64,000 bases of DNA from an uncultured candidate division Zixibacteria bacterium (GTDB taxonomy: Bacteria; Zixibacteria; MSB-5A5; GN15; FEB-12): the NCBI GenBank assembly GCA_963806185.1, contig CAWDXE010000007.1:288001-352000 (forward strand). The letters are read 5' to 3'. The notes below the pieces were generated by a model, which did no database searches, was not told where the DNA came from, and was given only the letters and a program-made list of their open reading frames with translations. Position 1 is the stretch's first letter, and the number at the start of each line of letters is the position of its first letter. Positions 14,618 to 63,378 of the stretch are shown one piece after another. A program made the position numbers and the translations under genes.

Positions 14618-15586
14618 ATGCCGATGCCGACTTCACCAACTATATTGCCCGCCGACACTATGAAACCGGGCATCGAGACCTCGTCCTCTCTCCCAGGGCG
14701 GCCTCCGGGCGACCGGTCCGCCACTCGCTGGCGGATCTTCTGGGGTATCGTCTATTTCCTGGCTGCAGTTGCGATAGTCTGGTTCTTTGTGCACGGCCAC
14801 AGCTACTATTCAACTCCGCTGGCGGATCGGCCGCATCACCCTGATTATCGTCAGCTTCGACCGGCCGGGATGACCGGCCTGGGGTATGGCGTGGTCGGCT
14901 CGGTCATGATGATCGTTATGCTGGTGTACACGCTCCGCAAGCGCGTGCGAATGTTTGGACGACTGGGGAATCTGCGCCAATGGCTGAATTTTCATATGTT
15001 TCTGGGCGTCGTCGGGCCGTTACTAATCGTGCTGCACACCTCGTTCAAAGTACAGGGACTGGTGGCGATCAGTTTCTGGTCGATGGTATTGGTGGCGGTG
15101 AGCGGATTTTTCGGACGATTTCTTTACGTGCAAATTCCCCGGAATATCAACGGTGACGCACTGAGTCTCGCGGAACTGGAACAGGAAATGTCAGTGCTCA
15201 CCCGCCGCCTCCGAGGCGAATTTGGTATTCCCGAGGACGGCCTGGAGCGTATCGATAAGATCGCCGTGGCCGCGTCAACCGATCATGGCCTCGGCGCCCT
15301 GATGCGTTTGATCGTGGGCCGGGGAGTGTCGAAGATCCGCGTTCACGGTCGGGTGAAAGCCGCGCTTCTGGGCGTGTGGACCGGCACCGACCTCGAACTT
15401 CGTGCCTTGAGCAGCCTGGTACATCGTAAGGCTACCATTCAACTTCGCACACGAACCCTGGGACAAGTGCAGCAGCTCTTCCACTATTGGCACGTCTTTC
15501 ACAAGCCATTTGCGATCATCATGTATATCGTCATGCTGGTACATATCGGAGTGGCCGTCTGGACGGGGTACACGTGGATCTTTTGA
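14618..15586 (+). CDS. Inner-membrane protein, predicted di-haem cytochrome b (ferric-reductase-like TM domain)
   Basis: About 5 TM segments; two H-x13-H pairs (WLNFH...LH and VFH...VH). Confidence 0.7.
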   Translation: MPMPTSPTILPADTMKPGIETSSSLPGRPPGDRSATRWRIFWGIVYFLAAVAIVWFFVHGHSYYSTPLADRPHHPDYRQLRPAGMTGLGYGVVGSVMMIVMLVYTLRKRVRMFGRLGNLRQWLNFHMFLGVVGPLLIVLHTSFKVQGLVAISFWSMVLVAVSGFFGRFLYVQIPRNINGDALSLAELEQEMSVLTRRLRGEFGIPEDGLERIDKIAVAASTDHGLGALMRLIVGRGVSKIRVHGRVKAALLGVWTGTDLELRALSSLVHRKATIQLRTRTLGQVQQLFHYWHVFHKPFAIIMYIVMLVHIGVAVWTGYTWIF

Positions 15587-15588
15587 GA

Positions 15589-17271
15589 ATGACCCGACAT
15601 TGCCGAGGCATTCTGATCGTCGGTTTGGTGATAGCTGTGGCGGTCAGCGGAGCGATGGCTCAGCTGTCGCCGGGCGATCTCAGCGAGGGTCACGCGTCAC
15701 TGGAAGGCGTGAAGAATTGCACCAAATGTCACGACAGTGACCAGAACCTGGTCGCCGACAAATGTCTCGCCTGTCATACCGCGCTAAAGGCCCGTGTCGA
15801 TTCGGGAAGGGGGCTTCATGCCCGCCCCGAACAGGCGGAATGTCAGCATTGCCATGTCGAACACCAGGGGAAAGACTTCGCCCTGGTCTACTGGAAAGAC
15901 GGCGAGCACAATTTTGATCATGCCCGGACCGGCTACGTTCTGGAAGGCGGCCATCGGAAACTCGCCTGTCGGGATTGCCATAAGAGTCAATTTATGAAGG
16001 CAACCGATCAACTGGCCCAGCAAGCGGTCAACCTCCAGCGCACCTATCTGGGGCTGGACCGCGACTGCCGAAACTGCCACGCCGATGAACATCGGGGCCA
16101 GTTTACGCAGGCCTGTACCGAGTGTCACACCCAATTGGCGTGGAAACCAGCGTCCGGATTTGCCCACGACAAGAGTGCTTTCGCACTGGCGGGGAAGCAC
16201 CGAGACGTCGCCTGTGAGAAGTGCCACACCCTTATGCTTGAACAAGGCGGGGGGGAGGATTCGCTATTCTTGCAGTTTACCCGAATCGCCCACAATCAAT
16301 GCAGCGACTGTCACAAAGATCCCCACCAAACGCGCCTGGGGGCCGACTGTGCGCGCTGTCATACGGCCGATAGCTGGAGACAGGTCGCAGCGACCGATTT
16401 CGATCATAGCAGGACCCGGTTCCCGCTGACCGGCAAACATGCGGCAGTGCAGTGCGAGAAGTGTCATGCGGCGGGCCAGCGCGCTGCCGCGCTCAAATTC
16501 GACAATTGCCGCGATTGCCACACCGACTATCACAAAGGGGCGTTTGTCAATCGAGCCGCCAAAGGCGCCTGCGAGGAATGTCACACGGTATCCGGTTTCA
16601 GGCCGGCCGCCTTCACTCTGGCCCAGCACGATTCTACCGACTTTGCGCTGGCCGGTGCTCATCTTGCCATTCCGTGTCTGGCGTGCCACAAGACGGAACG
16701 GGGCGAACCCGCTCGCTTTGTATTCAAATCAATGGTATGCAGCACCTGTCACGCCGACGTGCACCAGGGTTCGCTCATTAACGTTATGGCGGATTCCGGC
16801 TGCACTGCCTGTCATTCGGTGGAGCGGTGGACGTCCGTCATCTACGACCACGCGGCCAAAACGCAATTTGCCCTTGAAGGAAAGCATGCCGCCGTCGCCT
16901 GTAACAAATGTCATAAGCCGTCAGATGTCGCTCAGAGCGCCATCGTCTTTGGCAAGCTCTCCACTCAATGCGGGAGTTGTCATCAGGATCCGCATCGCGG
17001 TCAATTCGCCTCAACTGATGACGAGAGGGCCGCGCACCAGGCTGTCACCGGATGCGATCGTTGCCATTCGGTCAACTCGTGGCAGCCGGAGCGGTTCAAT
17101 CATGCCACGGCTAGATTTGTGCTCGACGGCGCCCACAGCCGCGTGGCCTGTACCGGCTGCCACAAGTCAATCTTCGAAAACGGAAATGTATATACGGAAT
17201 ATATAGGCACGGCCACCACATGTGCCGCCTGTCACGGGAGCAAGACCCCATCCCCGCGAGGTGACTTATGA
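15589..17271 (+). CDS. Multihaem cytochrome c, 20 CxxCH motifs
   Basis: Signal peptide, then 20 CxxCH (counted by hand) with FDH..T.F.L.G.H tri-haem repeats. Confidence 0.93.
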   Translation: MTRHCRGILIVGLVIAVAVSGAMAQLSPGDLSEGHASLEGVKNCTKCHDSDQNLVADKCLACHTALKARVDSGRGLHARPEQAECQHCHVEHQGKDFALVYWKDGEHNFDHARTGYVLEGGHRKLACRDCHKSQFMKATDQLAQQAVNLQRTYLGLDRDCRNCHADEHRGQFTQACTECHTQLAWKPASGFAHDKSAFALAGKHRDVACEKCHTLMLEQGGGEDSLFLQFTRIAHNQCSDCHKDPHQTRLGADCARCHTADSWRQVAATDFDHSRTRFPLTGKHAAVQCEKCHAAGQRAAALKFDNCRDCHTDYHKGAFVNRAAKGACEECHTVSGFRPAAFTLAQHDSTDFALAGAHLAIPCLACHKTERGEPARFVFKSMVCSTCHADVHQGSLINVMADSGCTACHSVERWTSVIYDHAAKTQFALEGKHAAVACNKCHKPSDVAQSAIVFGKLSTQCGSCHQDPHRGQFASTDDERAAHQAVTGCDRCHSVNSWQPERFNHATARFVLDGAHSRVACTGCHKSIFENGNVYTEYIGTATTCAACHGSKTPSPRGDL

Positions 17272-19592
17272 TAGCGCGCATCCTGCCCTTCATCGCTTTG
17301 CTCATACTCGTCATCACGGTTGCGGCCCAGCGTGCTGACACGAATCCTCACGGCAAGCTGGCCTTCGACTGCGAGACCTGTCATACGACCGGTTCCTGGC
17401 AGCAATTGAAATCGCCCCTGCCGTTCTCGCACGACAAAACGGGATTTCCCCTCAAAGGGGCGCATCGACAGGCCAACTGCAACGGGTGTCACCGCAATCT
17501 TGTCTTCTCTCAAGTGAGTGTCGCCTGCGCCGACTGCCATCAGGACGTCCACGCCGGCCGACTGGGGACGGATTGCCAAAGCTGCCACATGCTTGACTCC
17601 TGGAGCAATCGAAAGGACCAGATTGCCACCCATGCCGATCGTGGCTTTCCGCTGACCGGCGTGCATGCCATTTCCGACTGTGCTGCCTGTCATACCACCG
17701 AGACATACGATGATTTTAAGGCTGTTGCGATAACCTGTCGCGGCTGTCACGAGCAGGCGTATCTGACAGCCGATAATCCCGATCACAAACTCGCCGGCTT
17801 CGCCGGCGACTGCGAACAGTGTCACCACGCCGCCGCCGGCTCGTGGCAGCGAACGACGTATCAGCATACGTCGGTTTTTCCATTAACCAACGGCCATCAG
17901 AAGGCAGAGTGCGTGGCCTGTCACGCCACCCAATTTGCAGCGACGTCGGGCGACTGCTACTCCTGCCACCAGCCTGATTACACTCAAGCGCAGGATCCAA
18001 ATCACCAGCAGGGCGGCTTTCCGACTAACTGCACGATGTGCCACACGACTGTTGCCTGGACACCCGCTAGTTTTGATCACGCCACCAGCAGTTTCCCGCT
18101 GACCGGGGCCCATATCGGCGTTCAATGTGTCTCCTGCCACTCGTCTGGGTATGTCGGTACGCCGACTGACTGCTATTCCTGTCACCAGAATGACTTTGCC
18201 TCGACCGATTCACCGAATCATGTGCAGTCGCAGTTCCCGCATACGTGCACCTCGTGCCACACCACCACCTCCTGGTCGCCCTCAACATTCGATCATAATG
18301 GGACCGGATTCACTCTCACCGGCGCGCATACGTCAGTATCCTGCGTTTCGTGTCACAGCTCCGGGTATGCCGGCACGCCGACCGCCTGTTATTCCTGCCA
18401 CCAGTCTGATTATGCGGGGACGACCGATCCGAATCATGCGCTGGCCGGCTTTTCAACCACGTGCACGCAGTGCCACACCACGGCCTCCTGGGGGAGTGCT
18501 AGCTATGACCATGCCGGGACAGGCTTCCCGCTGACCGGGGCGCATGTCACTGTCCAGTGTTCTTCGTGCCATGCATCGGTCTACGCCGGAACTTCGACCG
18601 ACTGCAATTCATGTCACAACGCCGACTATGTCGCAACCACCAATCCTAATCATGCGCAGTTGGGGTTTCCCACCACGTGTGTAACGTGCCATACTACGGC
18701 GGCATGGTCGCCGGCTTCCTTTGACCACACCAGCACCGGTTTCACTCTGACCGGCAAGCACACTACAGCCGCATGCCTCGATTGTCATTCCAGCGGCTAT
18801 GCAGGTACGCCGGCCGATTGTTATTCGTGTCACCAAAGTGATTTCACGGGCGCGACTGATCCGAATCACACCCTTGCCGGTTTTGCCGTGACCTGCGGCG
18901 ATTGCCATACCACCGCCGGGTGGTCACCGTCGAGTTTCAACCACTCGACCACCGGCTTTACGTTGACCGGTGCACACGTCGGCGCTACGTGTATCGCCTG
19001 CCATAGCACGGCCTATGCGGGCACGTCATCTGACTGCTACGCCTGCCATCAGTCGGATTACACCTCGGCGGCCGATCCCAATCACGTGCTGGGCAATTAT
19101 CCTCATACCTGTACCTCGTGCCATACCACCACAGCCTGGGTACCGGCCAGCTTTGATCACAATACAACCAGTTTCCCGTTAACGGGCGCACACCTGTCGG
19201 CGGCCTGCCTGGCTTGTCATAGCTCCGGCTACACGGGTACTCCGACCGCTTGCTATGCCTGCCATCAGTCCGATTATGCCGGTACAACCGATCCGGTCCA
19301 CACGGCGGCGAACTTCCCGACAACCTGCCAATCGTGCCACACTACCTCGGCCTGGCAGCCCTCTACCTGGGACCACGATGCACAATATTTCCCGATCTAT
19401 TCCGGCAAGCACAGCGGAGTATGGAACCAGTGTTCGGACTGCCACGTGAGCGCTGCCAACTACGCGGTGTTTGAGTGCATCAATTGTCACGAACACAACA
19501 GAACAGATACCGATGGTCATCATACCGAGGTCAGCGGTTACCAGTACCTCAGTACCGCCTGCTATACCTGTCATCCGCGAGGTACTCACTGA
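17268..19592 (+). CDS. Multihaem cytochrome c, 31 CxxCH motifs
   Basis: Signal peptide, then 31 CxxCH (counted by hand); Thr/Ser-rich 72-aa repeats. Confidence 0.95.
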   Translation: MIARILPFIALLILVITVAAQRADTNPHGKLAFDCETCHTTGSWQQLKSPLPFSHDKTGFPLKGAHRQANCNGCHRNLVFSQVSVACADCHQDVHAGRLGTDCQSCHMLDSWSNRKDQIATHADRGFPLTGVHAISDCAACHTTETYDDFKAVAITCRGCHEQAYLTADNPDHKLAGFAGDCEQCHHAAAGSWQRTTYQHTSVFPLTNGHQKAECVACHATQFAATSGDCYSCHQPDYTQAQDPNHQQGGFPTNCTMCHTTVAWTPASFDHATSSFPLTGAHIGVQCVSCHSSGYVGTPTDCYSCHQNDFASTDSPNHVQSQFPHTCTSCHTTTSWSPSTFDHNGTGFTLTGAHTSVSCVSCHSSGYAGTPTACYSCHQSDYAGTTDPNHALAGFSTTCTQCHTTASWGSASYDHAGTGFPLTGAHVTVQCSSCHASVYAGTSTDCNSCHNADYVATTNPNHAQLGFPTTCVTCHTTAAWSPASFDHTSTGFTLTGKHTTAACLDCHSSGYAGTPADCYSCHQSDFTGATDPNHTLAGFAVTCGDCHTTAGWSPSSFNHSTTGFTLTGAHVGATCIACHSTAYAGTSSDCYACHQSDYTSAADPNHVLGNYPHTCTSCHTTTAWVPASFDHNTTSFPLTGAHLSAACLACHSSGYTGTPTACYACHQSDYAGTTDPVHTAANFPTTCQSCHTTSAWQPSTWDHDAQYFPIYSGKHSGVWNQCSDCHVSAANYAVFECINCHEHNRTDTDGHHTEVSGYQYLSTACYTCHPRGTH
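18030..19325 (+). repeat. Six tandem 216-bp (72-aa, three-haem) intragenic repeats
   Basis: First Cys codon of each unit recurs with 216-bp period from 18030 to 19326. Confidence 0.9.
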
Positions 19593-21199
19593 TGACCACG
19601 CGTATCCTCATGGCAATCATGTGCGTTGTCTGCGCGACGATCTCTGCCTATGGCCAGACACCGGTGGCTGTGTCCTACCTCTCGGCTGACCACGTCTACC
19701 TGAGCGGTGGACGAGCGGAGGGGCTGCAGCTTGGCCAGCAGGTCATCGTTCTTCGAGAAGGAAAAGTAGTGGCAACGCTCGAAGTAGTGTACCTCGCCGA
19801 TCACTCTGCTTCCTGTACAATTGTCGAATCAAAGGGTGCGATCCAGACTGGAGATTTGGTCGACATTCCAATTCCGGCTTCTGGTGATTCAGCCGCTACG
19901 AGCACTACCGCGACCGACTCAACTGCCGTTGTTCCGCCCAAAGTCGAGTCTACACCTGCGCCAGTTTCCGCACGTACGACTCCCCGGCCCGATATCTGGG
20001 GTAGTCTCGCGATCGGCGCGCTTGGCTGGCGCGACAAGGACTCCGACGATCGCGATTACACCCAATCGAATGTCCGACTGAATCTGCGTACCCGGCATCT
20101 GATGAACGACCGGTTGACGTTGTCCTTGCGGTCACGAGGGCGGTACGACGAGCGGAATCGAACATACCGTTCCGCTGCCGATTCACGCGTCTGGCTGAAT
20201 CGACTGTATGAAATGTCGGCGGCGTACCAATCGGAGGATAAGCATTGGCGTGCGAGTTTCGGTCGTATGCCGATTCGCAGCGTCGCCGCTTTAGGAGTGC
20301 TGGACGGCCTTGTTGTCGAACGCGACCTCAGCGGCTCTTTCTCGCTCGGCGCGTTTGGCGGCCTGCAGCCGCAGTGGCAGTACAGCGAAGGACGGGCATC
20401 CCTCAGCCGCTTTGGCATCATGAGTGAGTTCCGACAGACTTTCGGTGAGGTGTCATGGAAGTCGTCCGCCGCCCTTTTGCGTGAGTATCACAGTGGCGAG
20501 ATTAACCGCGACGCCCTCATGCTGCAGAGCTATGCCGGTAGTCGCGACCGATGGCAAGCCTCTTTGCTGGCTGAATTCGACTACAATTCCGGATGGCGAA
20601 AAGTACGCAGCGGCTCAACCTTCACGCTGTCCTCCGTATACGCCTACCTGCGCTATCGGGTGATCGAGGGACTCTCCATCAACACCAACTACGGCAGTCG
20701 TCAAACCGTCTGGCTATGGGACTATCGGGATATCGCCGATACCTTGCTCGACGAGCGCACGCGTCGCTGGTCGCGAGTCGGCATCGACCTTTCCCCCTCG
20801 ACTCGATGGGCGCTTGGCGGCACCGTTGGCGCCTACTTTCAGGATGCACGGAGTCGTCGCCAGCTATCCAGTACGGTCTACGGCCGCCTCAATCGGCTGT
20901 GGGACCCGCGATCTACCTTCTGGTCGCAGTACACGATGAGCGAGGGAATCGGCGAAAGGGCGCATACCTATTCCGTTCGAATTACCCAGGGTTTCCGCCG
21001 CCTCGATCAGTTTAGTGTGGCATTTGGTGAGAATTCATATAAGGTTACAGACGCGGACCGACGGAGCAGTTGGTGGGCAGAGGGCGAATTGCAGAACGAA
21101 CTGGTCGACCGGGTAATGCTCCGCCTTCGCTATCGACATGCCGCAGGCGATGATTTGCGCGGCAGTCAATTTGAGACGGAATTGGGATATCGTTTCTAA
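19592..21199 (+). CDS. Outer-membrane beta-barrel (porin-like) protein with a small N-terminal beta domain
   Basis: Signal peptide, Pro/Thr linker, alternating beta pattern, C-terminal ELGYRF beta-signal; ATG overlaps previous stop. Confidence 0.75.
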   Translation: MTTRILMAIMCVVCATISAYGQTPVAVSYLSADHVYLSGGRAEGLQLGQQVIVLREGKVVATLEVVYLADHSASCTIVESKGAIQTGDLVDIPIPASGDSAATSTTATDSTAVVPPKVESTPAPVSARTTPRPDIWGSLAIGALGWRDKDSDDRDYTQSNVRLNLRTRHLMNDRLTLSLRSRGRYDERNRTYRSAADSRVWLNRLYEMSAAYQSEDKHWRASFGRMPIRSVAALGVLDGLVVERDLSGSFSLGAFGGLQPQWQYSEGRASLSRFGIMSEFRQTFGEVSWKSSAALLREYHSGEINRDALMLQSYAGSRDRWQASLLAEFDYNSGWRKVRSGSTFTLSSVYAYLRYRVIEGLSINTNYGSRQTVWLWDYRDIADTLLDERTRRWSRVGIDLSPSTRWALGGTVGAYFQDARSRRQLSSTVYGRLNRLWDPRSTFWSQYTMSEGIGERAHTYSVRITQGFRRLDQFSVAFGENSYKVTDADRRSSWWAEGELQNELVDRVMLRLRYRHAAGDDLRGSQFETELGYRF

Positions 21200-21219
21200 C
21201 TGTTCGAGCGTATAAACCG

Positions 21220-22566
21220 GTGATGGATTCCTACCTGATTTGGATTGCCGCGGGTGCACTGGTACTCATCGTTTTCGTCCCTTACTTCATCAGCTTTCGG
21301 AAGGAGCGTAAGGCGGCTGAGTTGCGCAAGAAAGAAGCAGCTCACCTCGGCCTCGATCAAGCGCGGGCACAGTTTCCCTTTATCGACAGTGGCATGTGTA
21401 TTGGCTGCGGTTCCTGCGTAAGCGCCTGCCCAGAGGGTGATGTACTGGGAGTTGTGTTCGGCACCGCTGCGGTCATAAATGGTGAGCGGTGTGTCGGCCA
21501 CGGCTACTGTGAGACAGCCTGCCCGGTCGGTGCTATTCACGTCGGGCTTGGTGATCTCTCCTCGCGGCCCGATGTCCCCCTGCTTACCGAGAATCAGGAG
21601 ACAACCGTTCGCGGGCTCTACATTTCAGGGGAACTGAGCGGACTCTCACTCATTCGCAATGCCATCGCCCAGGGTGCGACCGCCGTCGATCATATTGCCA
21701 GGTCCGGCAAGCAGCAACTTTCGGACGTATTTGACGTGGTGATTGTCGGCGCCGGTCCGGCGGGAATGAGCGCCGCCTTGACCGCCAGAAAACACAATCT
21801 CTCATACCTCGTACTTGAGGAACTGGGGATAGGTGGAACAATTCTCCACTATCCGAGAGCCAAACTGGTCATGACACAACCGGTCGAGATACCGCTTTAT
21901 GGCTGGCTCAAGCAGGAAGAGTACAGTAAAGAAGTCCTGATGACGACATGGCAGGAAATAGCCGCCCGGTTTTCGCTGAAAATTCACACCGGTGAGCGTG
22001 TCGAACAAGTCCAGAAGCAGGGTGATGTCTTTACGGTCCTGACAAGTCTCGACGCGTATCGCGCGCGTAACGTCGTCCTTGCGATGGGGCGCCGGGGAAC
22101 TCCCCGACGACTTGATGTCCCGGGCGAAGACCTCCCCAAGGTCCTGTATTCACTCATTGACGCACAGAGTTACCGCAACTCCCACGTCCTGGTAGTCGGC
22201 GGTGGCGACAGCGCGGTCGAAGCAGCCGTCGGTCTGGCCCGTCAGCCCGGCAATACAGTGACCATTTCATACCGCAAGACGAGCTTCTTCCGCGTGAAAA
22301 AGAAGAACGAGGATCGTATCAACCAGCTCATCGCCCAGCGGAAGGTCAGGCCGATTTTTGAGTCCCAGGTCCGCGATATCTCGCCGGGATCGGTTCTCCT
22401 CGCCACGCCCCAGGGAGAGTATCCGGTTCCCAACGACGCGATTTTCGTCTTCATCGGGGGAATTCCGCCATTTGATATGTTGAAGGCGATGGGTATCGAA
22501 TTCGGTGGCAAGCCGAAGACTATGCGTGACGAATTAAAGCCCCGTAATGCCGCTCTGGCGCGATAA
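21220..22566 (+). CDS. Membrane-anchored 4Fe-4S ferredoxin fused to a TrxR/FNR-like FAD/NAD(P)H oxidoreductase
   Basis: N-terminal TM; CIGCGSCVSACP and CVGHGYCETACP; GAGPAG; GGGDSAVE; YRK. Confidence 0.85.
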   Translation: MMDSYLIWIAAGALVLIVFVPYFISFRKERKAAELRKKEAAHLGLDQARAQFPFIDSGMCIGCGSCVSACPEGDVLGVVFGTAAVINGERCVGHGYCETACPVGAIHVGLGDLSSRPDVPLLTENQETTVRGLYISGELSGLSLIRNAIAQGATAVDHIARSGKQQLSDVFDVVIVGAGPAGMSAALTARKHNLSYLVLEELGIGGTILHYPRAKLVMTQPVEIPLYGWLKQEEYSKEVLMTTWQEIAARFSLKIHTGERVEQVQKQGDVFTVLTSLDAYRARNVVLAMGRRGTPRRLDVPGEDLPKVLYSLIDAQSYRNSHVLVVGGGDSAVEAAVGLARQPGNTVTISYRKTSFFRVKKKNEDRINQLIAQRKVRPIFESQVRDISPGSVLLATPQGEYPVPNDAIFVFIGGIPPFDMLKAMGIEFGGKPKTMRDELKPRNAALAR

Positions 22567-25145: not shown

Positions 25146-26258
25146 ATGATGCAGACTAAATCACTTGGCCGTTGGCCCCTATTGCTTTTGGCGTCGGCCG
25201 CCGCCTTCACGGTGACGAATTGTTCCACTGATCAGGCATCCGCGGACGGCGGTGGAATGAAATTCCCACCAATGCCCGTTGAGGTGGCCGAAGTCGCCAA
25301 ATCCGGTATGGTCGATCGCTTCGAAGCGGTCGGCAATATTGACGCCGTCGATCGCATTACGGTCGTCTCCGAGGTCGATGCCATCGTTAAGTCACTGCCC
25401 TTTCATGAGGGTGTGGCGGTGAGTGCGGGTGATGTCATCGCGCAGCTTGACGACGAGCAACTCCAGGCGCAAAAAGTCAGCGCCGAAGCAGTACTCAGCC
25501 AGCGCAAACTCAACTATGAACGGATCAAGTCCATTGTCGAGCAGAAGGCCGGTGCACCGCAGGCGTTGGATGATGCTCAGGCGGCCTATAGAGTCGCCGA
25601 GGCCGATCTGGCTGTGGTTGAAGCGCGGCTGAAAAAGACGCGCATCACCGCGCCGTTCAGCGGCGTGCTCGGTACGCGACGCGTCTCGCCGGGAGCGTTC
25701 CTTCGCGCCGGCAGTGAAATCACCGATCTGTCACGACTCAGCGAACTCAAGGTGACCTTTGCGGCGCCGGAGCGGTATCTCACTTCGTTGCGTCGGGGTG
25801 CCAATGTGGTGGTGACCACACCGGCTCTTCCGGATACGAAACTCGAGGGGACCATTGCTGTCGTCGAGCCGGTCGTCGATTCCATTACGCGAAGCGTCAG
25901 GCTGACCGCCCATGTGGACAATCCGGAACAGATGCTTCGCCCCGGCATGTCGGCCAACGTGTCAGCCGTGTTGGATGAACGAACCGACGCGTTGGTTGTG
26001 CCCGATGAAGCGGTTTTTGTCGAAGGAGATCAGTCACTGGTCTTCGTCGTCAAGGATGACTCTACGGTCGCTCGCACGCCCATCCGTACGGGTACGCGGA
26101 CGGCGCAACTCGTGGAAGTAGTCAGCGGACTCTCCGTGGGACAGAAGGTCGTGCGCGCGGGACACCAGAAACTGTTTGAGGGGGCGAAAGTCATGCCGAT
26201 GTCGGCTGAACAGATGCAGGGGCAAGCTCAACCGTCGGCGCCCATGGGAGCCCGGTAA
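25146..26258 (+). CDS. RND periplasmic adaptor (MFP)
   Basis: Lipoyl/hairpin pattern, ITAPFSG, LRPGMSA. Confidence 0.92.
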   Translation: MMQTKSLGRWPLLLLASAAAFTVTNCSTDQASADGGGMKFPPMPVEVAEVAKSGMVDRFEAVGNIDAVDRITVVSEVDAIVKSLPFHEGVAVSAGDVIAQLDDEQLQAQKVSAEAVLSQRKLNYERIKSIVEQKAGAPQALDDAQAAYRVAEADLAVVEARLKKTRITAPFSGVLGTRRVSPGAFLRAGSEITDLSRLSELKVTFAAPERYLTSLRRGANVVVTTPALPDTKLEGTIAVVEPVVDSITRSVRLTAHVDNPEQMLRPGMSANVSAVLDERTDALVVPDEAVFVEGDQSLVFVVKDDSTVARTPIRTGTRTAQLVEVVSGLSVGQKVVRAGHQKLFEGAKVMPMSAEQMQGQAQPSAPMGAR

Positions 26259-29200
26259 TGAAAATAAGTGAACTCTCCATCCGACGTCCTGTCTTTGCCA
26301 CCGTACTCTCGCTGGCCATCGTCCTGTTCGGACTGGTTGCGTTTCTTCGCCTCCCCGTTCGCGAGTACCCGGATATTGATTCGCCGATCGTCTCCATCAC
26401 CACTTTGTATCGTGGCGCCAGTCCGAGTGTCGTTGAAAACGAAGTCACGGACATTCTCGAAGAGCAATTGTCCACTGTCGAAGGCATAAAGTCCATCAGC
26501 TCCTCGAGCCTTGAGCAGGGCTCGGTAGTGACAGTCGAATTTGAGCTCGGTCGAAATGTCGATGAGGCGGCCAATGACGTGCGCGATCGCGTCTCGCGAA
26601 TTCGCGGATCACTGCCACAGGAAGTTGACGAACCGATTGTGGAAAAGGTCGACGTCAACGCCCAGCCGATCATCTGGCTTTCGCTCCTGAGCGATCGTCA
26701 CAGTATTCTCGAATTGTCCGATGTCGCCGATCGCATCATGAAGGAGCGCATTCAGCGTTTGCCGGGCGTCGGCTCGGTCTTCATCGGCGGCGAGCGGCGT
26801 TATTCGATGCGCGTCTGGCTCGACCCTCACCGGATGGCCGCCCGCGGCGTCACCGCCAGCGACGTCGAGAATGCGATCCGCCAGGAAAACGTTGAAATAC
26901 CCGGGGGACGTGTTGAGGGACAGGGGCGTGAATTCTCCGTGCGAACGCGAGGTGATCTGGCCACGCCCGAAGAGTTCGCTGCTCATGATCGTTAAGCAGG
27001 AGAACGGTGACCTGGTGAAACTTGGTGACGTCGCCGACGTTTCGCTGGGCGCGGAGGATGATCGTACGGCGGTGCGCTACAACGGCACGACATCAGTTGG
27101 CCTCGGTATCGTTAAGCAGTCGCGGGCGAGCACACTCGACGTCGCCCATGCGGTGACCGCCGCTCTGCCGGAACTTCAGAAGATTCTCCCTGACGGCATG
27201 AAGATTCAGATGGCGTTCAATTCGGCGGAGTTTATTGAATCATCAATCAATGAAGTGAGTGAGACCCTCATCATTGCGCTTTTCCTCGTGGTCTTTGTCA
27301 TCCTGGCCTTCCTCAAGAGTTTTCGGGCGACGATCATTCCGACCTTTGCTATTCCCGTATCGATCGTCGGCGCCTTTGCCGTCGCCTACTTCCTCGGCTT
27401 CACGGTCAATATCCTTACGCTATTGGCTTTGGTGCTGGCGATTGGACTTGTCGTAGATGACGCCATTGTCGTGCTTGAGAATATCTTCCGCCACATGGAG
27501 ATGGGGAAGTCACGTCGTCAGGCGGCGCTCGATGGTTCAAAGGAAATCGGCTTCGCCGTACTGGCGACCACCATTTCGTTGGTGGCCGTGTTCGTGCCGC
27601 TCGCCTTCCTGACCGGCAACGTCGGCCGCCTTTTCAACGAATTCGGAGTGATGGTGGCCACCGCCGTGTTGATCTCCGGTTTTGTGGCGCTCACTCTCAC
27701 GCCTATGCTCTGCGCCAAGATGCTTCGCCCTCTCCACGGAGGCAGCAAGAGCTGGGCTTCCCGATCCTTCGATAATTTCTTCGAATGGCTTGACAGGACC
27801 TATGAGAAGGTCCTCCGCGCCGCTTTGCGTCATCGCGCCATTTCTCTCTCCGTCGCCGTAGTCATCATGACGGCGATCGGCGGATTTCTGTACATTCTGC
27901 CCAGCGAGTTGGTGCCGACCGAGGATCGATCGGTAGCCTTCGGTTTTGTCATTGCTCCCGAAGGTGCGACGCTCGAATACACTGACCGGTACATGCGGCA
28001 GATCGAGAGCATTCTTATGAAAGTGCCGGAGCGAGAAGGGCGTCTTTTCAGCCACCGGTCTCGGCTTCGGCGGTCCCGGGCGCGTGACCAACGGCTTTGT
28101 CGTGCTCCTGCTCAAACCACAGAGCGAACGCAGTCGTTCTCAGCAGGAAATCGTGCAGACGCTTTTCCCGCAGTTGCTCGGCATTCCCGGGGTACTTGCC
28201 TTTCTCATTAACCCGCCCGCGCTGGGCGATTTCGGCGGAAGCCCGGTTGAATATGTGTTGCAGGGTGACACCTACGAAGAACTTCAGGCGGCCGTCGGTA
28301 CGATGATGGGCGAAGCGTCCAAGCTGGGCTATGCTCATCAACATGGATACCGATCTTCGTCTGAATAAACCGCAACTGGAAGTCACCATTGATCGCGAAC
28401 GGGCTGCGCAACTCGGCGTCTCGGTCCGTGAAATCGGCTCGACTCTCGAAACCATGCTCGGTGGGCGCGCGGTTACTAATTTCAAGCGGGCCGGCAAGCA
28501 GTACGACGTTATCGCCCAGCTCAAGCCGTCTGAGCGGGCCACGCCGGATATTATCAGTGAAACCTACGTCCGTGGAAAGTCGGGGTTGGTCCAGTTGGCC
28601 AACGTCGTCAACGTAAAAGAAAACGTCGCGCCCAAAGAGCTCAACCACTACAATCGCGTGCGCTCCGCCACGATTACTGCGTCGACTGTCCCCGGAGTCA
28701 GTTTGGGACAGGCCCTCAGCGCGTCTCGATCAAATCGCGGCCACCAAACTCCCGCCGAGCATTAAGACCGATCTGAAGGGTCAGTCACGCGAATTCCGAG
28801 ACTCCAGCTCAAGTTTGTACTTCCTGTTCCTGTTCGCGCTGGTCTTTATCTACCTGGTCCTGGCGGCCCAGTTTGAGAGCTTCATCCATCCGATGACGAT
28901 TCTGCTGGCGGTACCGCTGGCGGTCGCCGGTGCACTCGCCTCGTTGTTCATATTCAAGCAAACGATGAATATCTACTCGCAGATCGGGCTGATCATGCTC
29001 ATCGGGTTGGTGACCAAAAACTCGATTCTGATCGTGGAATTTGCCAACCAGCTTCGTGAACAAGGGCAGGAACTTGCCGAGGCGGTCATTTCCGCTTCGC
29101 GGATTCGTTTGCGACCGATTCTCATGACATCCTTCGCCACCATCTTCGGCATCCTGCCGATTGCCATCGGTTTCGGCGCCGGCGCCGAATCGCGGCGCCC

Positions 29201-29408
29201 GCTGGGCATTGCGGTGGTAGGAGGCATGGTGTTCTCCACGTTCCTTACGCTCGTACTGGTGCCGGTCGTCTATACGCTGTTGTCGAGAAAGAAGGTTAGG
29301 GCCGTGGAAACTGCAACCCATCCGGCGGTCCACAAGCCGGAACTGATTCAGCAGAATCGCCCGCCTGATCCGGCGCCCAATGCCGGGTATTTCGCCGCGC
29401 CGGAATGA
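26258..29408 (+). CDS. RND efflux permease (AcrB/MdtB family) with four +1 frameshifts (~26984, ~28040, ~28333, ~28724)
   Basis: IRRPVFA, GLVVDDAIVVLEN, GLVTKNSIL, RLRPILMT across five consecutive fragments; repaired length about 1048 aa. Confidence 0.85.
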
Positions 29409-62179: not shown

Positions 62180-63378
62180 TTATTTTCCTTTAATCGTTCC
62201 CTTCATGTGCCCGGCACCCAACTTTGACGGTGACTCGGAATGCTTCACCTTCATTCCGGGCGGGGCATCCTTCGGCGTCCGACCGTCATCATGACAATCA
62301 GCACACACCGGATCCGACTCAAACTTCCGTCCGGGATGGCACGATTCGCAATCCATATCTTTATGAGTTTCGTCAAGCTGCAGCCCGGTCACGGCATGCT
62401 GGAAGTTGTCCGGCGTCCAGCCCCGATGGCAATTGGCGCACATCTTGTTCAGTTTGGCGATCCGCTTGCCGGTCGGATGGCAGGTCCAGCAATCGAGCTG
62501 GTTATGATACGGATTGAGCGGCCAGCCGGTACTGCTGTGAGTGAAACCGGGCCGTTCTTTCGTGTCGTGGCACTTCCTGCATTCATCCTTGCCATGGCAG
62601 TCATTGCAGATGGCATGCACCTCTACTTGCGTTTTGGGCGGGGTCGTCCCCTTGAGGTCGTGGCAATGGCCGCAGTTTTCTGCTTTGTGGCAATCGACAC
62701 AGCGGAAGCCGAACAGATCGATATGCTCTTTATGCTGGAACGTTACCACCGGCCCCTGCTTGTACGGCGTCGTATAGACCCTCTTGCCCGGGACATTGAT
62801 CACCGGGTGGGACTTGCCCATGATGTCGGTCGGGTCGTGCGTGGTGTCGTCGAGCTTCCCTCCCGGCGTCGGGACGTGGCAGAGGACGCACTTAGTATCG
62901 TGGCTCCACTCCCGGTGGCAGGCCAGACACTGGCGATGATACGCGCCTTTGAGGTTCGGCTTGCGCAAGTCGGTCGATTCGGTCGACACGGAGTGGCAAT
63001 CTTTGCATGGCGGGATCTCGCCCCGGGGGACTGTAGTGGTGGCAGGTGGCACAGTCCTTGCCCATTTGAGCCATCCCGGCGTGCAGCTTGTGATTGAAAG
63101 TGCACCGGCTGATACAGATCGGCCAGATCGTCCAGCAGCATCGAATCGGGTGCATCTCCCAGAGCGTGTTGCGTGGCCCGATGTACCATCTGCGTGCGTG
63201 GGCACGACTTCAAGCAGGGTTCTCTGACAGTCGGTACGTCGCAGGTATGGCACTCCTTGCAGTTGATCGACGGCATGGCCGATTTAGCGCCGGCGGTCTG
63301 AGCGGACGCGATGGTCGCGGTCATCATGATCGCCAGCAGCAATATCGACGCTACCAATATGATCGGTCGGACTTTCAT
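62180..63378 (-). CDS. Multihaem cytochrome c (c3-like), 13 CxxCH after repairing two +1 frameshifts (~63098, ~63024)
   Basis: Signal peptide; VHFNHKLH...CATCHH; KGAYHRQCLACH; repaired length about 398 aa. Confidence 0.85.

Follow-up and report, generated by a model that had tools for sequence, protein, structure and literature searches.

The conduits described for extracellular electron transfer by Gram-negative bacteria draw on the quinone pool (PMC5566968). The closest described relative of the system considered here, the PCC3 cluster, was defined in the same source by a barrel, a periplasmic cytochrome of ~21 haems with a low amino acid-to-haem ratio, a large cytochrome, taken to be extracellular, with repeats rich in T, S, A and G, and an inner-membrane protein (IMP) of ~300 amino acids with five helices, an SGxxG motif on helix 4 and WX3HX13H motifs on helices 3 and 5. 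It was modelled there as a quinone-linked and mostly proteobacterial system of four genes, with a Leptothrix porin of 22 predicted strands among the examples. A preprint also describes PCC3 as four genes, of unverified function (bioRxiv 10.1101/2025.02.27.639646), and the type clusters of Sideroxydans ES-1 are Slit_0867-0870 and Slit_1446-1449 (PMC5566968, PMC9900912). Here, we analyzed a 64,000-nucleotide stretch of the genome of an uncultured candidate division Zixibacteria bacterium (contig CAWDXE010000007.1, positions 288,001 to 352,000; hereafter the window), which carries a PCC3-type cluster together with a fifth gene, encoding a membrane-anchored Fe-S flavoprotein (FOX). FOX is likely the cytoplasmic input subunit of this cluster.

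Four of the window's genes show the features by which PCC3 is recognized, namely a barrel, a 20-haem cytochrome (cytochrome A), a repeat-rich 31-haem cytochrome (cytochrome B) and the IMP motifs. An earlier sequence-only reading of this DNA had already matched the cluster to PCC3, and this assignment is upheld by these features and by the homology of IMP to a group that is linked to Gallionellaceae proteins. Alignment of the window's IMP family with this more distant group (A5) by hhalign gave a probability of 100 and an E value of 8e-43; one A5 IMP clusters at 90% with Gallionellaceae proteins, and the listed peptides of Slit_1446 resemble A5 by eye, i.e., the homology to the type clusters runs through the A5 group and peptides, not through full-length type sequences. 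FOX stands head-to-head with a more distant IMP in 11 FOX metagenome loci, and wherever the sequence extends far enough, 18-24-haem and larger cytochromes come next. Cytochrome A is 28-33% identical to the 21- and 24-haem cytochromes of Gallionellaceae-type clusters (E 1e-58 to 1e-69). The match between the barrel and a Gallionellaceae-type barrel, from a cut open reading frame (ORF) of locus L145, was weak (18.7 bits), and the barrel protein has 535 amino acids against 744 for Slit_0867.

A type cluster itself appears to have a FOX neighbor. Slit_0866, a protein of 430 amino acids, adjoins the PCC3 porin Slit_0867 of ES-1 (PMC12016527). Its five listed peptides match FOX-family sequences by eye, and one Slit_0866 peptide was found exactly in 7 of the 80 FOX loci described below and in none of the 18,356 ORFs of the source genome. 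By this peptide evidence, Slit_0866 is a FOX homologue flanking a type PCC3 cluster, and the flavoenzyme gene is not peculiar to the present locus, a correction to the sequence-only reading. ES-1 also has an unlinked FOX look-alike, Slit_0525, of which no peptides were seen. In the main texts, "Slit_0866" and "oxidoreductase" occur nowhere in PMC12016527, and "ferredoxin" and "FAD" nowhere in PMC5566968. Our literature search, in which subscription journals were thinly covered, found no title or opening of an abstract that named a flavoprotein as a part of PCC3; Figure 6 and Supplementary Tables 3 and 4 of PMC5566968 may show the gene. A complete five-gene cluster, with ccsA, is present on plasmid pEMTOL02 of Emticicia oligotrophica.

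FOX and IMP were found to occur together with great regularity. Among 251 genomes of the phylum, counting full-length matches only (four weak or partial IMP rows and three partial FOX rows were dropped), IMP was present in 71, FOX in 74, both in 70 and neither in 176. The 60 pairs that shared a contig were all encoded on the same strand and within 8.8 kb of each other, with FOX directly before IMP in 13. The sole genome with IMP only had a FOX fragment beside IMP at a contig end, and the four genomes with FOX only, one of which has an IMP fragment, were all divided into 170-720 contigs. A wider survey, with one genome per species, found 101 relatives of IMP, of which the best 80 were kept; the phyla or titles of these loci included Calditrichota, Ignavibacteria, Thermoanaerobaculia, Zixibacteria, Krumholzibacteria, Marinimicrobia, Latescibacterota and WOR-3. 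FOX was present in 55 of the 80 loci, including all 42 that had at least 9.5 kb of downstream sequence, and 24 of the 25 loci lacking FOX ended within 5.5 kb. The order of the genes varied, with FOX in some loci after cytochrome A, after IMP or before IMP, and FOX stayed throughout. When the survey was made from the side of FOX, using the best 80 of 565 metagenome matches (many on short contigs), IMP was found in 29 of the 30 loci with at least 3 kb upstream. The clusters that a look-up in the Atlas returned, from Acidobacteriota, Gemmatimonadota and Myxococcota, all lacked a name.

In three of the 80 FOX loci (L110, L139 and L161), FOX and IMP were a single in-frame chain, the three chains being 46-49% identical to one another; in L161, the fusion gene is followed by genes for a 26-haem cytochrome, a barrel and a 19-haem cytochrome. 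A search with the IMP half of a fusion returned 718 proteins of 404-1287 amino acids at E<=1e-20. FOX preceded IMP in all 120 of the proteins listed, and 110 of these were full length, with 13-27 residues between the FOX and IMP matches and both His motifs. The listed proteins had a median pairwise identity of 57%; a phylum is given in four rows, Planctomycetota each time. No longer IMP homologues had been found with the window's IMP profile (A1), a miss of sensitivity, since a fusion member as query revealed the family. The window's FOX and IMP are 46-48% and 27-30% identical, respectively, to the fusion halves, and the fusion joins two ends that are predicted to be cytoplasmic. The fusion may be a single event, yet one that has been maintained. 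The co-conservation of flavoenzyme and membrane protein, which had been named with the sequence-only reading as a test of it, was thus observed in 70 of 71 phylum genomes, in the 42 long loci and in natural fusions. Together, these comparisons indicate that FOX belongs to the machine encoded by the cluster.

The outer part of the cluster can be found on its own. The barrel was matched in 80 of the 251 phylum genomes, and we opened six of the extra barrel places, plus one IMP place. Genomes G138, G194 and G245, and a second copy in G105, had cytochrome B and the barrel in a stretch without IMP, cytochrome A or FOX. The genomes G138 and G194 are single contigs, 95-96% complete, and had no match to IMP or FOX anywhere, and therefore IMP and FOX are missing together. 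Because the barrel and cytochrome B occur without the remaining genes, the cluster consists of an outer module (cytochrome B and barrel) and an inner module (FOX, IMP and cytochrome A).

The FOX protein begins with a transmembrane anchor followed by a basic stretch, because of which we place its body in the cytoplasm, and continues with a ferredoxin domain. Of 37 sequences, 32 have His and 5 have Ile as the second ligand of one of its two Fe-S clusters, which is therefore likely a 3Cys-His [4Fe-4S] or a [3Fe-4S] cluster. The closest solved relatives of residues 170-430 are Bdr/YpdA, thioredoxin reductase (TrxR) and TrxR-type ferredoxin-NADP reductase (7a7b, 7a76, 3lzw and 3ab1; E 9e-30 for Bdr). 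FOX ends directly after the NAD(P) domain, and a segment usually located behind that domain lies before the GxGxxG motif (residues 110-164). A profile of this permuted segment matched 24 PDB sequences at E<=0.5, each weakly (best 0.002), and all 24 were FAD pyridine-nucleotide oxidoreductases, matched in the stretch after their NAD(P) domain; the segment as a single sequence matched 7jyp at 300-340. Against the ORFs of the source genome, the best match of the profile other than to itself was a TrxR gene (E 0.04, suggestive). The family models gave a similar picture: FOX scored 178.7 bits with TIGR04018 (YpdA/Bdr; cut-off 339.9), in a match that stops at model position 264 of 316 with the missing part lying N-terminally in FOX, and 103.6 bits with TIGR01292 (thioredoxin reductase; cut-off 343.45). 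No redox-active CxxC was present after residue 115 in any of 37 FOX sequences. By these features, FOX is predicted to have a circularly permuted TrxR fold without the redox cysteines. It likely binds NADPH, based on its GGGDSA and SYRK motifs and conserved basic residues (R352 is invariant and positions 358 and 360 are always basic), which we take to be the NADPH-preference motifs of the TrxR family. The possibility that FOX is an ordinary thioredoxin reductase adjacent to the cluster by accident was rejected on the grounds of the missing CxxC, the co-inheritance and the fusion.

Relatives of FOX were also seen in other settings. The permuted flavoprotein module is N-terminal in proteins of 675-784 amino acids with C-terminal 4Fe-4S domains (L084:6932-9286 and L091:7345-9372), the former of which includes membrane helices and is encoded among glycosyltransferase genes. 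Full-length FOX was encoded with no IMP, barrel or multihaem gene within 10 kb upstream and 8 kb downstream at L107:9986-11296, or within 2.4 kb upstream and 10 kb downstream at L130:2331-3662.

The inner-membrane protein has five hydrophobic segments by hydropathy, and its structure model had a predicted local distance difference test (pLDDT) score of 86. Nine residues (W122, H126, H140, S162, G163, G166, W291, H295 and H309) were invariant in all 63 aligned sequences; two WX3HX13H motifs with SGxxG occurred in exactly this form in 61 of 62 homologues, and the remaining one has three motifs. IMP is predicted, from its four invariant His residues, to be a dihaem cytochrome b. A helical insert of ~120 residues separates helices 4 and 5. 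Charge counts (positive-inside) placed the N-terminus, the loop 107-122 and this insert in the cytoplasm, and we infer from this that one His pair lies on each side of the membrane, H126/H295 on the cytoplasmic and H140/H309 on the periplasmic side. IMP did not reach the cut-off of any Pfam or NCBIfam family, and the ferric reductase domain PF01794 did not match it at E<=0.05; precomputed matches to PF01794 exist for 13 of the 120 listed FOX-IMP fusion proteins. Foldseek found nothing for the IMP model at E<=0.001, a PDB sequence search with the IMP profile found nothing at E<=1, and the VIA-align list consisted mostly of generic helical hairpins, with no NADPH oxidase (NOX) structure among the structural matches listed.

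The two cytochromes, both of which have signal peptide-like N-termini, differ in how constant they are. Cytochrome A has 20 CxxCH motifs, 24 further His residues and 28 amino acids per haem, and 55 of 67 uncut homologous ORFs had exactly 20 CxxCH. Cytochrome B has 31 CxxCH, 37 spare His residues, a T/S/A/G content of 43% and a net charge of -33; it is built of three-haem, 72-residue repeats, including seven 72-residue units of 57% mean identity, and the largest B-type ORF per locus had 10-70 CxxCH among 48 loci. This difference, A constant at 20 while B varies, suggests that only cytochrome A is confined by the width of the periplasm, where it is likely a wire of fixed length. Cytochrome B is likely the partner of the barrel and exposed at the cell surface. 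The spare His residues and few Met residues suggest that the haems of both are bis-His ligated. TIGR03508 (DmsE/MtrA) scored only 44.4 and 42.8 bits with the window's cytochromes (cut-off 192.2), and a PDB sequence search with cytochrome B found nothing at E<=0.01. Homologues of cytochrome B with 73 CxxCH (L099:2933-8321) and 70 CxxCH (L022:12570-17747) were seen, and two-gene units of a 27-48-haem homologue and a barrel, with no inner module nearby, were observed at L092:8968-13599, L093:8964-13448, L094:7917-13389 and L095:5502-9270.

The AlphaFold2 model of the barrel protein (mean pLDDT 89) comprises a signal peptide, a small beta domain (residues 25-91), a low-confidence linker and a predicted barrel in which 22 strands were counted over residues 134-534. 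Its best structural matches by Foldseek and VIA-align were the 22-strand barrels of TonB receptors, and ushers (best in VIA-align, 5t3r_D: Z 21.1, root-mean-square deviation (rmsd) 4.1, 377 residues aligned), and MtrB (6r2q_B) was matched with Z 16.6, rmsd 5.2 and 353 residues aligned. The PDB sequence search with the barrel profile gave one match, at E 0.47. A TonB-dependent receptor was rejected as an identity for the protein, the barrel model being without a plug domain. The sequence-only reading had also been made to depend on this protein being a barrel, which the model predicts, and on at least one cytochrome lying outside the cell, for which the signs are indirect.

We consider it probable that the five proteins form an outward wire fed by NAD(P)H, because FOX accompanies IMP in many bacterial phyla and, in one lineage, forms a single chain with it. 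In this scheme, membrane-anchored FOX would accept hydride from NADPH onto its FAD in the cytoplasm, the choice of cofactor following from the motifs above, and would pass single electrons through its two Fe-S clusters, consistent with the absence of the TrxR disulfide site. IMP would then receive the electrons at its cytoplasmic b-haem and carry them through the membrane to its second b-haem; the invariant His residues point to these haems, and the fusion and co-inheritance to the partnership of FOX with IMP. The 20-haem cytochrome, given its constant length, would span the periplasm, and delivery to the outside would fall to the 31-haem cytochrome, which would either sit in the 22-strand barrel or be exported through it. 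Flow is most likely outward, with insoluble or chelated Fe(III) or humic quinones as a first guess for the acceptor. The potential of NADP+/NADPH is about -0.32 V and the cytoplasmic side of the membrane is negative, and for these reasons both redox span and membrane potential favor outward transfer, while inward transfer from Fe(II) opposes both. Such a wire would be NOX-like and not energy-conserving. An electron that leaves the cytoplasm moves with the membrane potential, as it does in NADPH oxidases, so the wire would consume proton-motive force instead of generating it, and would thus serve as a reductant exporter or redox valve, not as a respiratory chain.

Several observations weigh against this scheme. 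FOX was last, behind the barrel and not beside IMP, in 35 of the 55 loci, which is the window's order and the commonest; in the remaining locus of the IMP-side survey, L020, IMP stands apart and FOX lies beside a barrel on another contig. No cluster gene was near FOX in two of 23 loci with at least 2 kb on both sides (L107 and L130). The IMP-FOX distance correlation over 24 loci was 0.60, no better than that of other cluster pairs (0.52-0.65), and related genomes are not independent, so the co-inheritance counts overstate the support. Cytochrome B has no lipobox and no known export route. In addition, the only structural match of IMP with a known haem function was the superoxide oxidase of E. 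coli (5oc0), a quinone-reactive dihaem cytochrome b (b561), which VIA-align superposed on the four-helix core with Z 8.0, rmsd 3.2 and 132 residues aligned, the noise level for helical bundles. The second PCC3 cluster of ES-1 is flanked by an HD hydrolase (Slit_1445) and an aldolase (Slit_1450) and has no FOX beside it (PMC12016527), and therefore IMP can be encoded apart from FOX.

The last two points would suit a quinone-linked conduit to which FOX is docked as an NAD(P)H dehydrogenase. IMP would then be a cytochrome b that reacts with quinone, FOX would fill or empty the quinone pool there, and the wire would exchange electrons with quinol in the service of respiration. A quinone-reactive IMP is the published model for PCC3 (PMC5566968), and the conserved FHYWHVFHKPF stretch of IMP, which lies close to the cytoplasmic haem, could form part of a quinone site. 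The source genome has haem-copper oxidase genes, so a quinone-based chain is likely present; the absence of a match to PF02621 (futalosine menaquinone pathway) in this 82%-complete genome, in which other quinone pathways were not searched, is uninformative on quinones. FOX would be superfluous in a wire fed by quinol; nevertheless, FOX and IMP accompany each other in 70 of 71 phylum genomes with IMP, are jointly missing from G138 and G194 and are fused in a large family, and two membrane-spanning haems with a cytoplasmic flavoenzyme are the arrangement of NOX and ferric reductases. FNR-type flavoproteins (FNR, ferredoxin-NADP reductase) were seen as partners only of distant IMP homologues, and this pairing of distant IMPs with other NAD(P)H flavoproteins we count, as apparent convergence, for the NAD(P)H-fed reading. 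We therefore regard a quinone-linked conduit as unlikely. An arrangement without any exchange with the outside, in which both cytochromes are periplasmic or tethered to the barrel as an electron store or a supply of reductant to enzymes of the envelope and the role of the barrel is limited to anchoring or secretion, seems to us improbable. The travelling of cytochrome B with the barrel as a two-gene unit, the missing plug of the barrel, and the variation of B against the constancy of A, as expected if only A is confined to the periplasm, all speak for a surface role, even though both N-termini are ordinary and signal peptide-like without a lipobox, the "extracellular" cytochrome Slit_1448 was represented by no peptide under any of the conditions used for the proteomics of ES-1 (PMC12016527), and 51 haems could act as a capacitor, an idea found in PMC9900912 and PMC7399161. 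Least probable, in our judgement, is an inward wire that would draw electrons from Fe(II), from minerals or from partner cells for the direct reduction of NAD(P)+. It would have to work against the membrane potential and lift electrons from Fe(II) donors to the far lower potential of NADP+/NADPH, and FOX, with its single FAD domain, does not look like a bifurcating enzyme of two-flavin design. Both ES-1 clusters are down-regulated on Fe(II) (PMC8788666). PCC3 was found in Fe(II) oxidizers (PMC5566968), and growth on magnetite gave higher scores for Slit_0866 than growth on Fe(II)-citrate (+2.35 and +2.55 log2 in two late comparisons, from 4 unique peptides and with many empty samples; PMC12016527), which are the observations in favor of inward flow.

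Extending the outward, NAD(P)H-fed reading to PCC3 as a whole is a more tentative step, and one about which we are somewhat more doubtful than confident. PCC3 would then be an NADPH oxidase-like machine across the whole envelope that uses no quinones, carries 30-90 haems and, helped by the membrane potential, exports low-potential reductant in anaerobes, aerobes and Fe(II) oxidizers alike; its permuted TrxR-fold flavoprotein and dihaem cytochrome b would be separate proteins here and one chain in Planctomycetota. If true, a wire that takes its electrons directly from NAD(P)H would add a second design to the extracellular electron-transfer conduits, and it would change the reading of PCC3 clusters in genome surveys, where they are now counted as candidate iron oxidases. 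It would also fit the lack of PCC3 induction by Fe(II) in Sideroxydans (PMC8788666). The cluster is common, occurring in ~28% of the 251 sampled genomes of the phylum. The NAD(P)H-fed reading is testable now, because cultured strains (Emticicia oligotrophica and probably Sideroxydans ES-1) carry all five genes and the natural fusion is an enzyme of one chain that can be assayed. Bioelectrochemistry would also have an interest in a five-gene NADPH-to-electrode cassette.

The positions of the genes and of the FOX domains are given in Table 1. The sequence-only reading had described five co-oriented and tightly coupled genes, and the ORF coordinates and junctions were confirmed: in order, a 2-bp gap, a 4-bp ATGA overlap, a 1-bp TGATG overlap and a 20-bp gap. 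The products it had proposed were also recognized, i.e., a His-paired membrane protein (both WX3HX13H motifs), two cytochromes totalling 51 CxxCH (20 and 31, far above shuffled proteins), a barrel ending in YRF (by its model and structural matches) and a membrane-anchored Fe-S/FAD oxidoreductase (N-terminal helix, ferredoxin domain and Pyr_redox_3/2 domains found); the labels "cytochrome b", "exported" and "porin" are predictions. Chance ORFs were rejected because of the CxxCH counts, as 2000 shuffles of each cytochrome gave means of 0.23 and 0.43 and a maximum of 3. The block is single-copy in the source genome, has spoVG as its upstream neighbor and, downstream, a GNAT-like gene encoded on the other strand, and shows a G+C content of 0.56-0.59, compared with 0.555-0.57 for the contigs of the genome. 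With this even composition and a PCC3-type cluster in 30 of 94 genomes of the same family, a recent foreign island was rejected. A scan for promoters and terminators found no promoter-like site upstream, with counts near shuffle levels, and a look-up of public sequencing runs gave no entries.

Table 1. Positions in the window of the five genes of the PCC3-type cluster and of the predicted parts of FOX.
Feature	Position	Strand	Remarks
IMP gene	14618-15586	+	322 amino acids; start possibly a later ATG
Cytochrome A gene	15589-17271	+	560 amino acids, 20 CxxCH
Cytochrome B gene	17268-19592	+	774 amino acids, 31 CxxCH
Outer-membrane barrel gene	19592-21199	+	535 amino acids, C-terminal YRF
FOX gene	21220-22566	+	448 amino acids; ATG at 21223 is the likelier start
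FOX transmembrane anchor (residues 6-24)	21235-21291	+	Predicted helix, then basic stretch
FOX ferredoxin domain	21376-21543	+	Predicted clusters C60-C63-C66/C101 and C91-H94-C97/C70
FOX permuted segment (residues 110-164)	21547-21711	+	Predicted FAD-binding strand (T..PG.FA.GD) and helix, usually C-terminal, here preceding GxGxxG
FOX FAD/NAD(P)H-binding domains	21727-22509	+	Predicted; GAGPAG 177-182; GGGDSA 327-332; SYRK

Elsewhere in the window, an AcrB-type RND transporter gene (26258-29408, + strand) is spread over four overlapping ORFs in different frames, and the haem-copper oxidase matches of the source genome (G000:C4:408405-409583 and C1:783706-785044) are similarly split. These splits are probably indel errors of the assembly; the five cluster genes are intact. 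In the source genome, two or more CxxCH were counted in each of 29 ORFs. Another cytochrome-rich block (G000:C1:7524-21262) is headed by a separate 1065-residue cytochrome with 42 CxxCH, and a cytochrome with 11 CxxCH lies near the end of the window (62180-63253, - strand).

Comparison with other known systems places the window's cluster closest to PCC3. With MtrCAB/MtoAB and the Geobacter conduits it shares a barrel with periplasmic and outer multihaem cytochromes, and MtrB is a structural neighbor of its barrel; there is no family-level homology by the DmsE/MtrA model, and the cytochromes of the window are far longer (20 and 31 haems, not decahaem). The MtrCAB/MtoAB and Geobacter systems draw on the quinone pool via CymA-type proteins (PMC5566968). 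The same source (section 16 and Supplementary Table 6) describes PCC4 and porin-less clusters of IMP with multihaem cytochromes, and for 10 of the 15 entries of Table 6 a redox protein of 412-805 amino acids is given without a name; a quinone link is modelled there, and no mention of NAD(P)H as donor was seen. These clusters have a related IMP and Fe-S or other redox neighbors, but short cytochromes and different flavoproteins. Among loci with distant IMP homologues, we observed two plasmids on which a short IMP homologue lies between an FNR-type FAD/NAD(P)/2Fe-2S protein, unrelated to FOX, and a 7-haem cytochrome. On the Bradyrhizobium plasmid (L082:1227-9873), this group is flanked by pentose-phosphate genes and directly follows gnd and zwf, and on the Alteromonas plasmid (L083:3974-10693) it lies ahead of [NiFe]-hydrogenase genes. 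Two PCC4-like loci (L089:4385-16538 and L090:3500-11547) encode a ~1230-residue 10-haem/LVIVD protein, a trihaem protein, a cNMP-binding/4Fe-4S protein, a distant IMP and a 10-haem cytochrome, and L089 also a Pyr_redox-FHA-2Fe-2S protein.

FOX itself is related in fold to Bdr/YpdA, thioredoxin reductase and TrxR-type FNR. Bdr and TrxR-type FNR have no CxxC, and FOX is like them in this respect; it differs from all three in being circularly permuted and fused to a ferredoxin domain and a membrane anchor. With NOX and ferric reductases (FRE; PF01794), the cluster has in common the paired HX13H helices and the proposed path from NAD(P)H through FAD and two b-haems to an outside acceptor, whereas FOX would be a permuted TrxR fold with ferredoxin, forming a separate and self-anchored subunit, and the output would be a 51-haem chain through the outer membrane. 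MsrQ-Fre is a split NOX/FRE-like system. Of the "split NOX/ferric reductase" proposed by the sequence-only reading, the paired-His layout therefore stands, a likeness of the PCC3 IMP to the NOX/ferric-reductase domain that was already published (PMC5566968), while the dehydrogenase is predicted to be of TrxR fold and not FNR-type. With published PCC3, the window shares the four-gene core: the IMP motifs, the ~21-haem cytochrome, the long T/S/A/G-rich repeat cytochrome and the barrel. The published version has four genes, is quinone-linked and is mostly proteobacterial, whereas the version described here has an NAD(P)H-type Fe-S flavoprotein as a constant fifth gene and occurs in Zixibacteria, Calditrichota, Ignavibacteria, Acidobacteriota, Bacteroidota and others. 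What goes beyond PCC3 as described in the papers cited is this fifth subunit and the NOX-like, quinone-independent reading that FOX supports.

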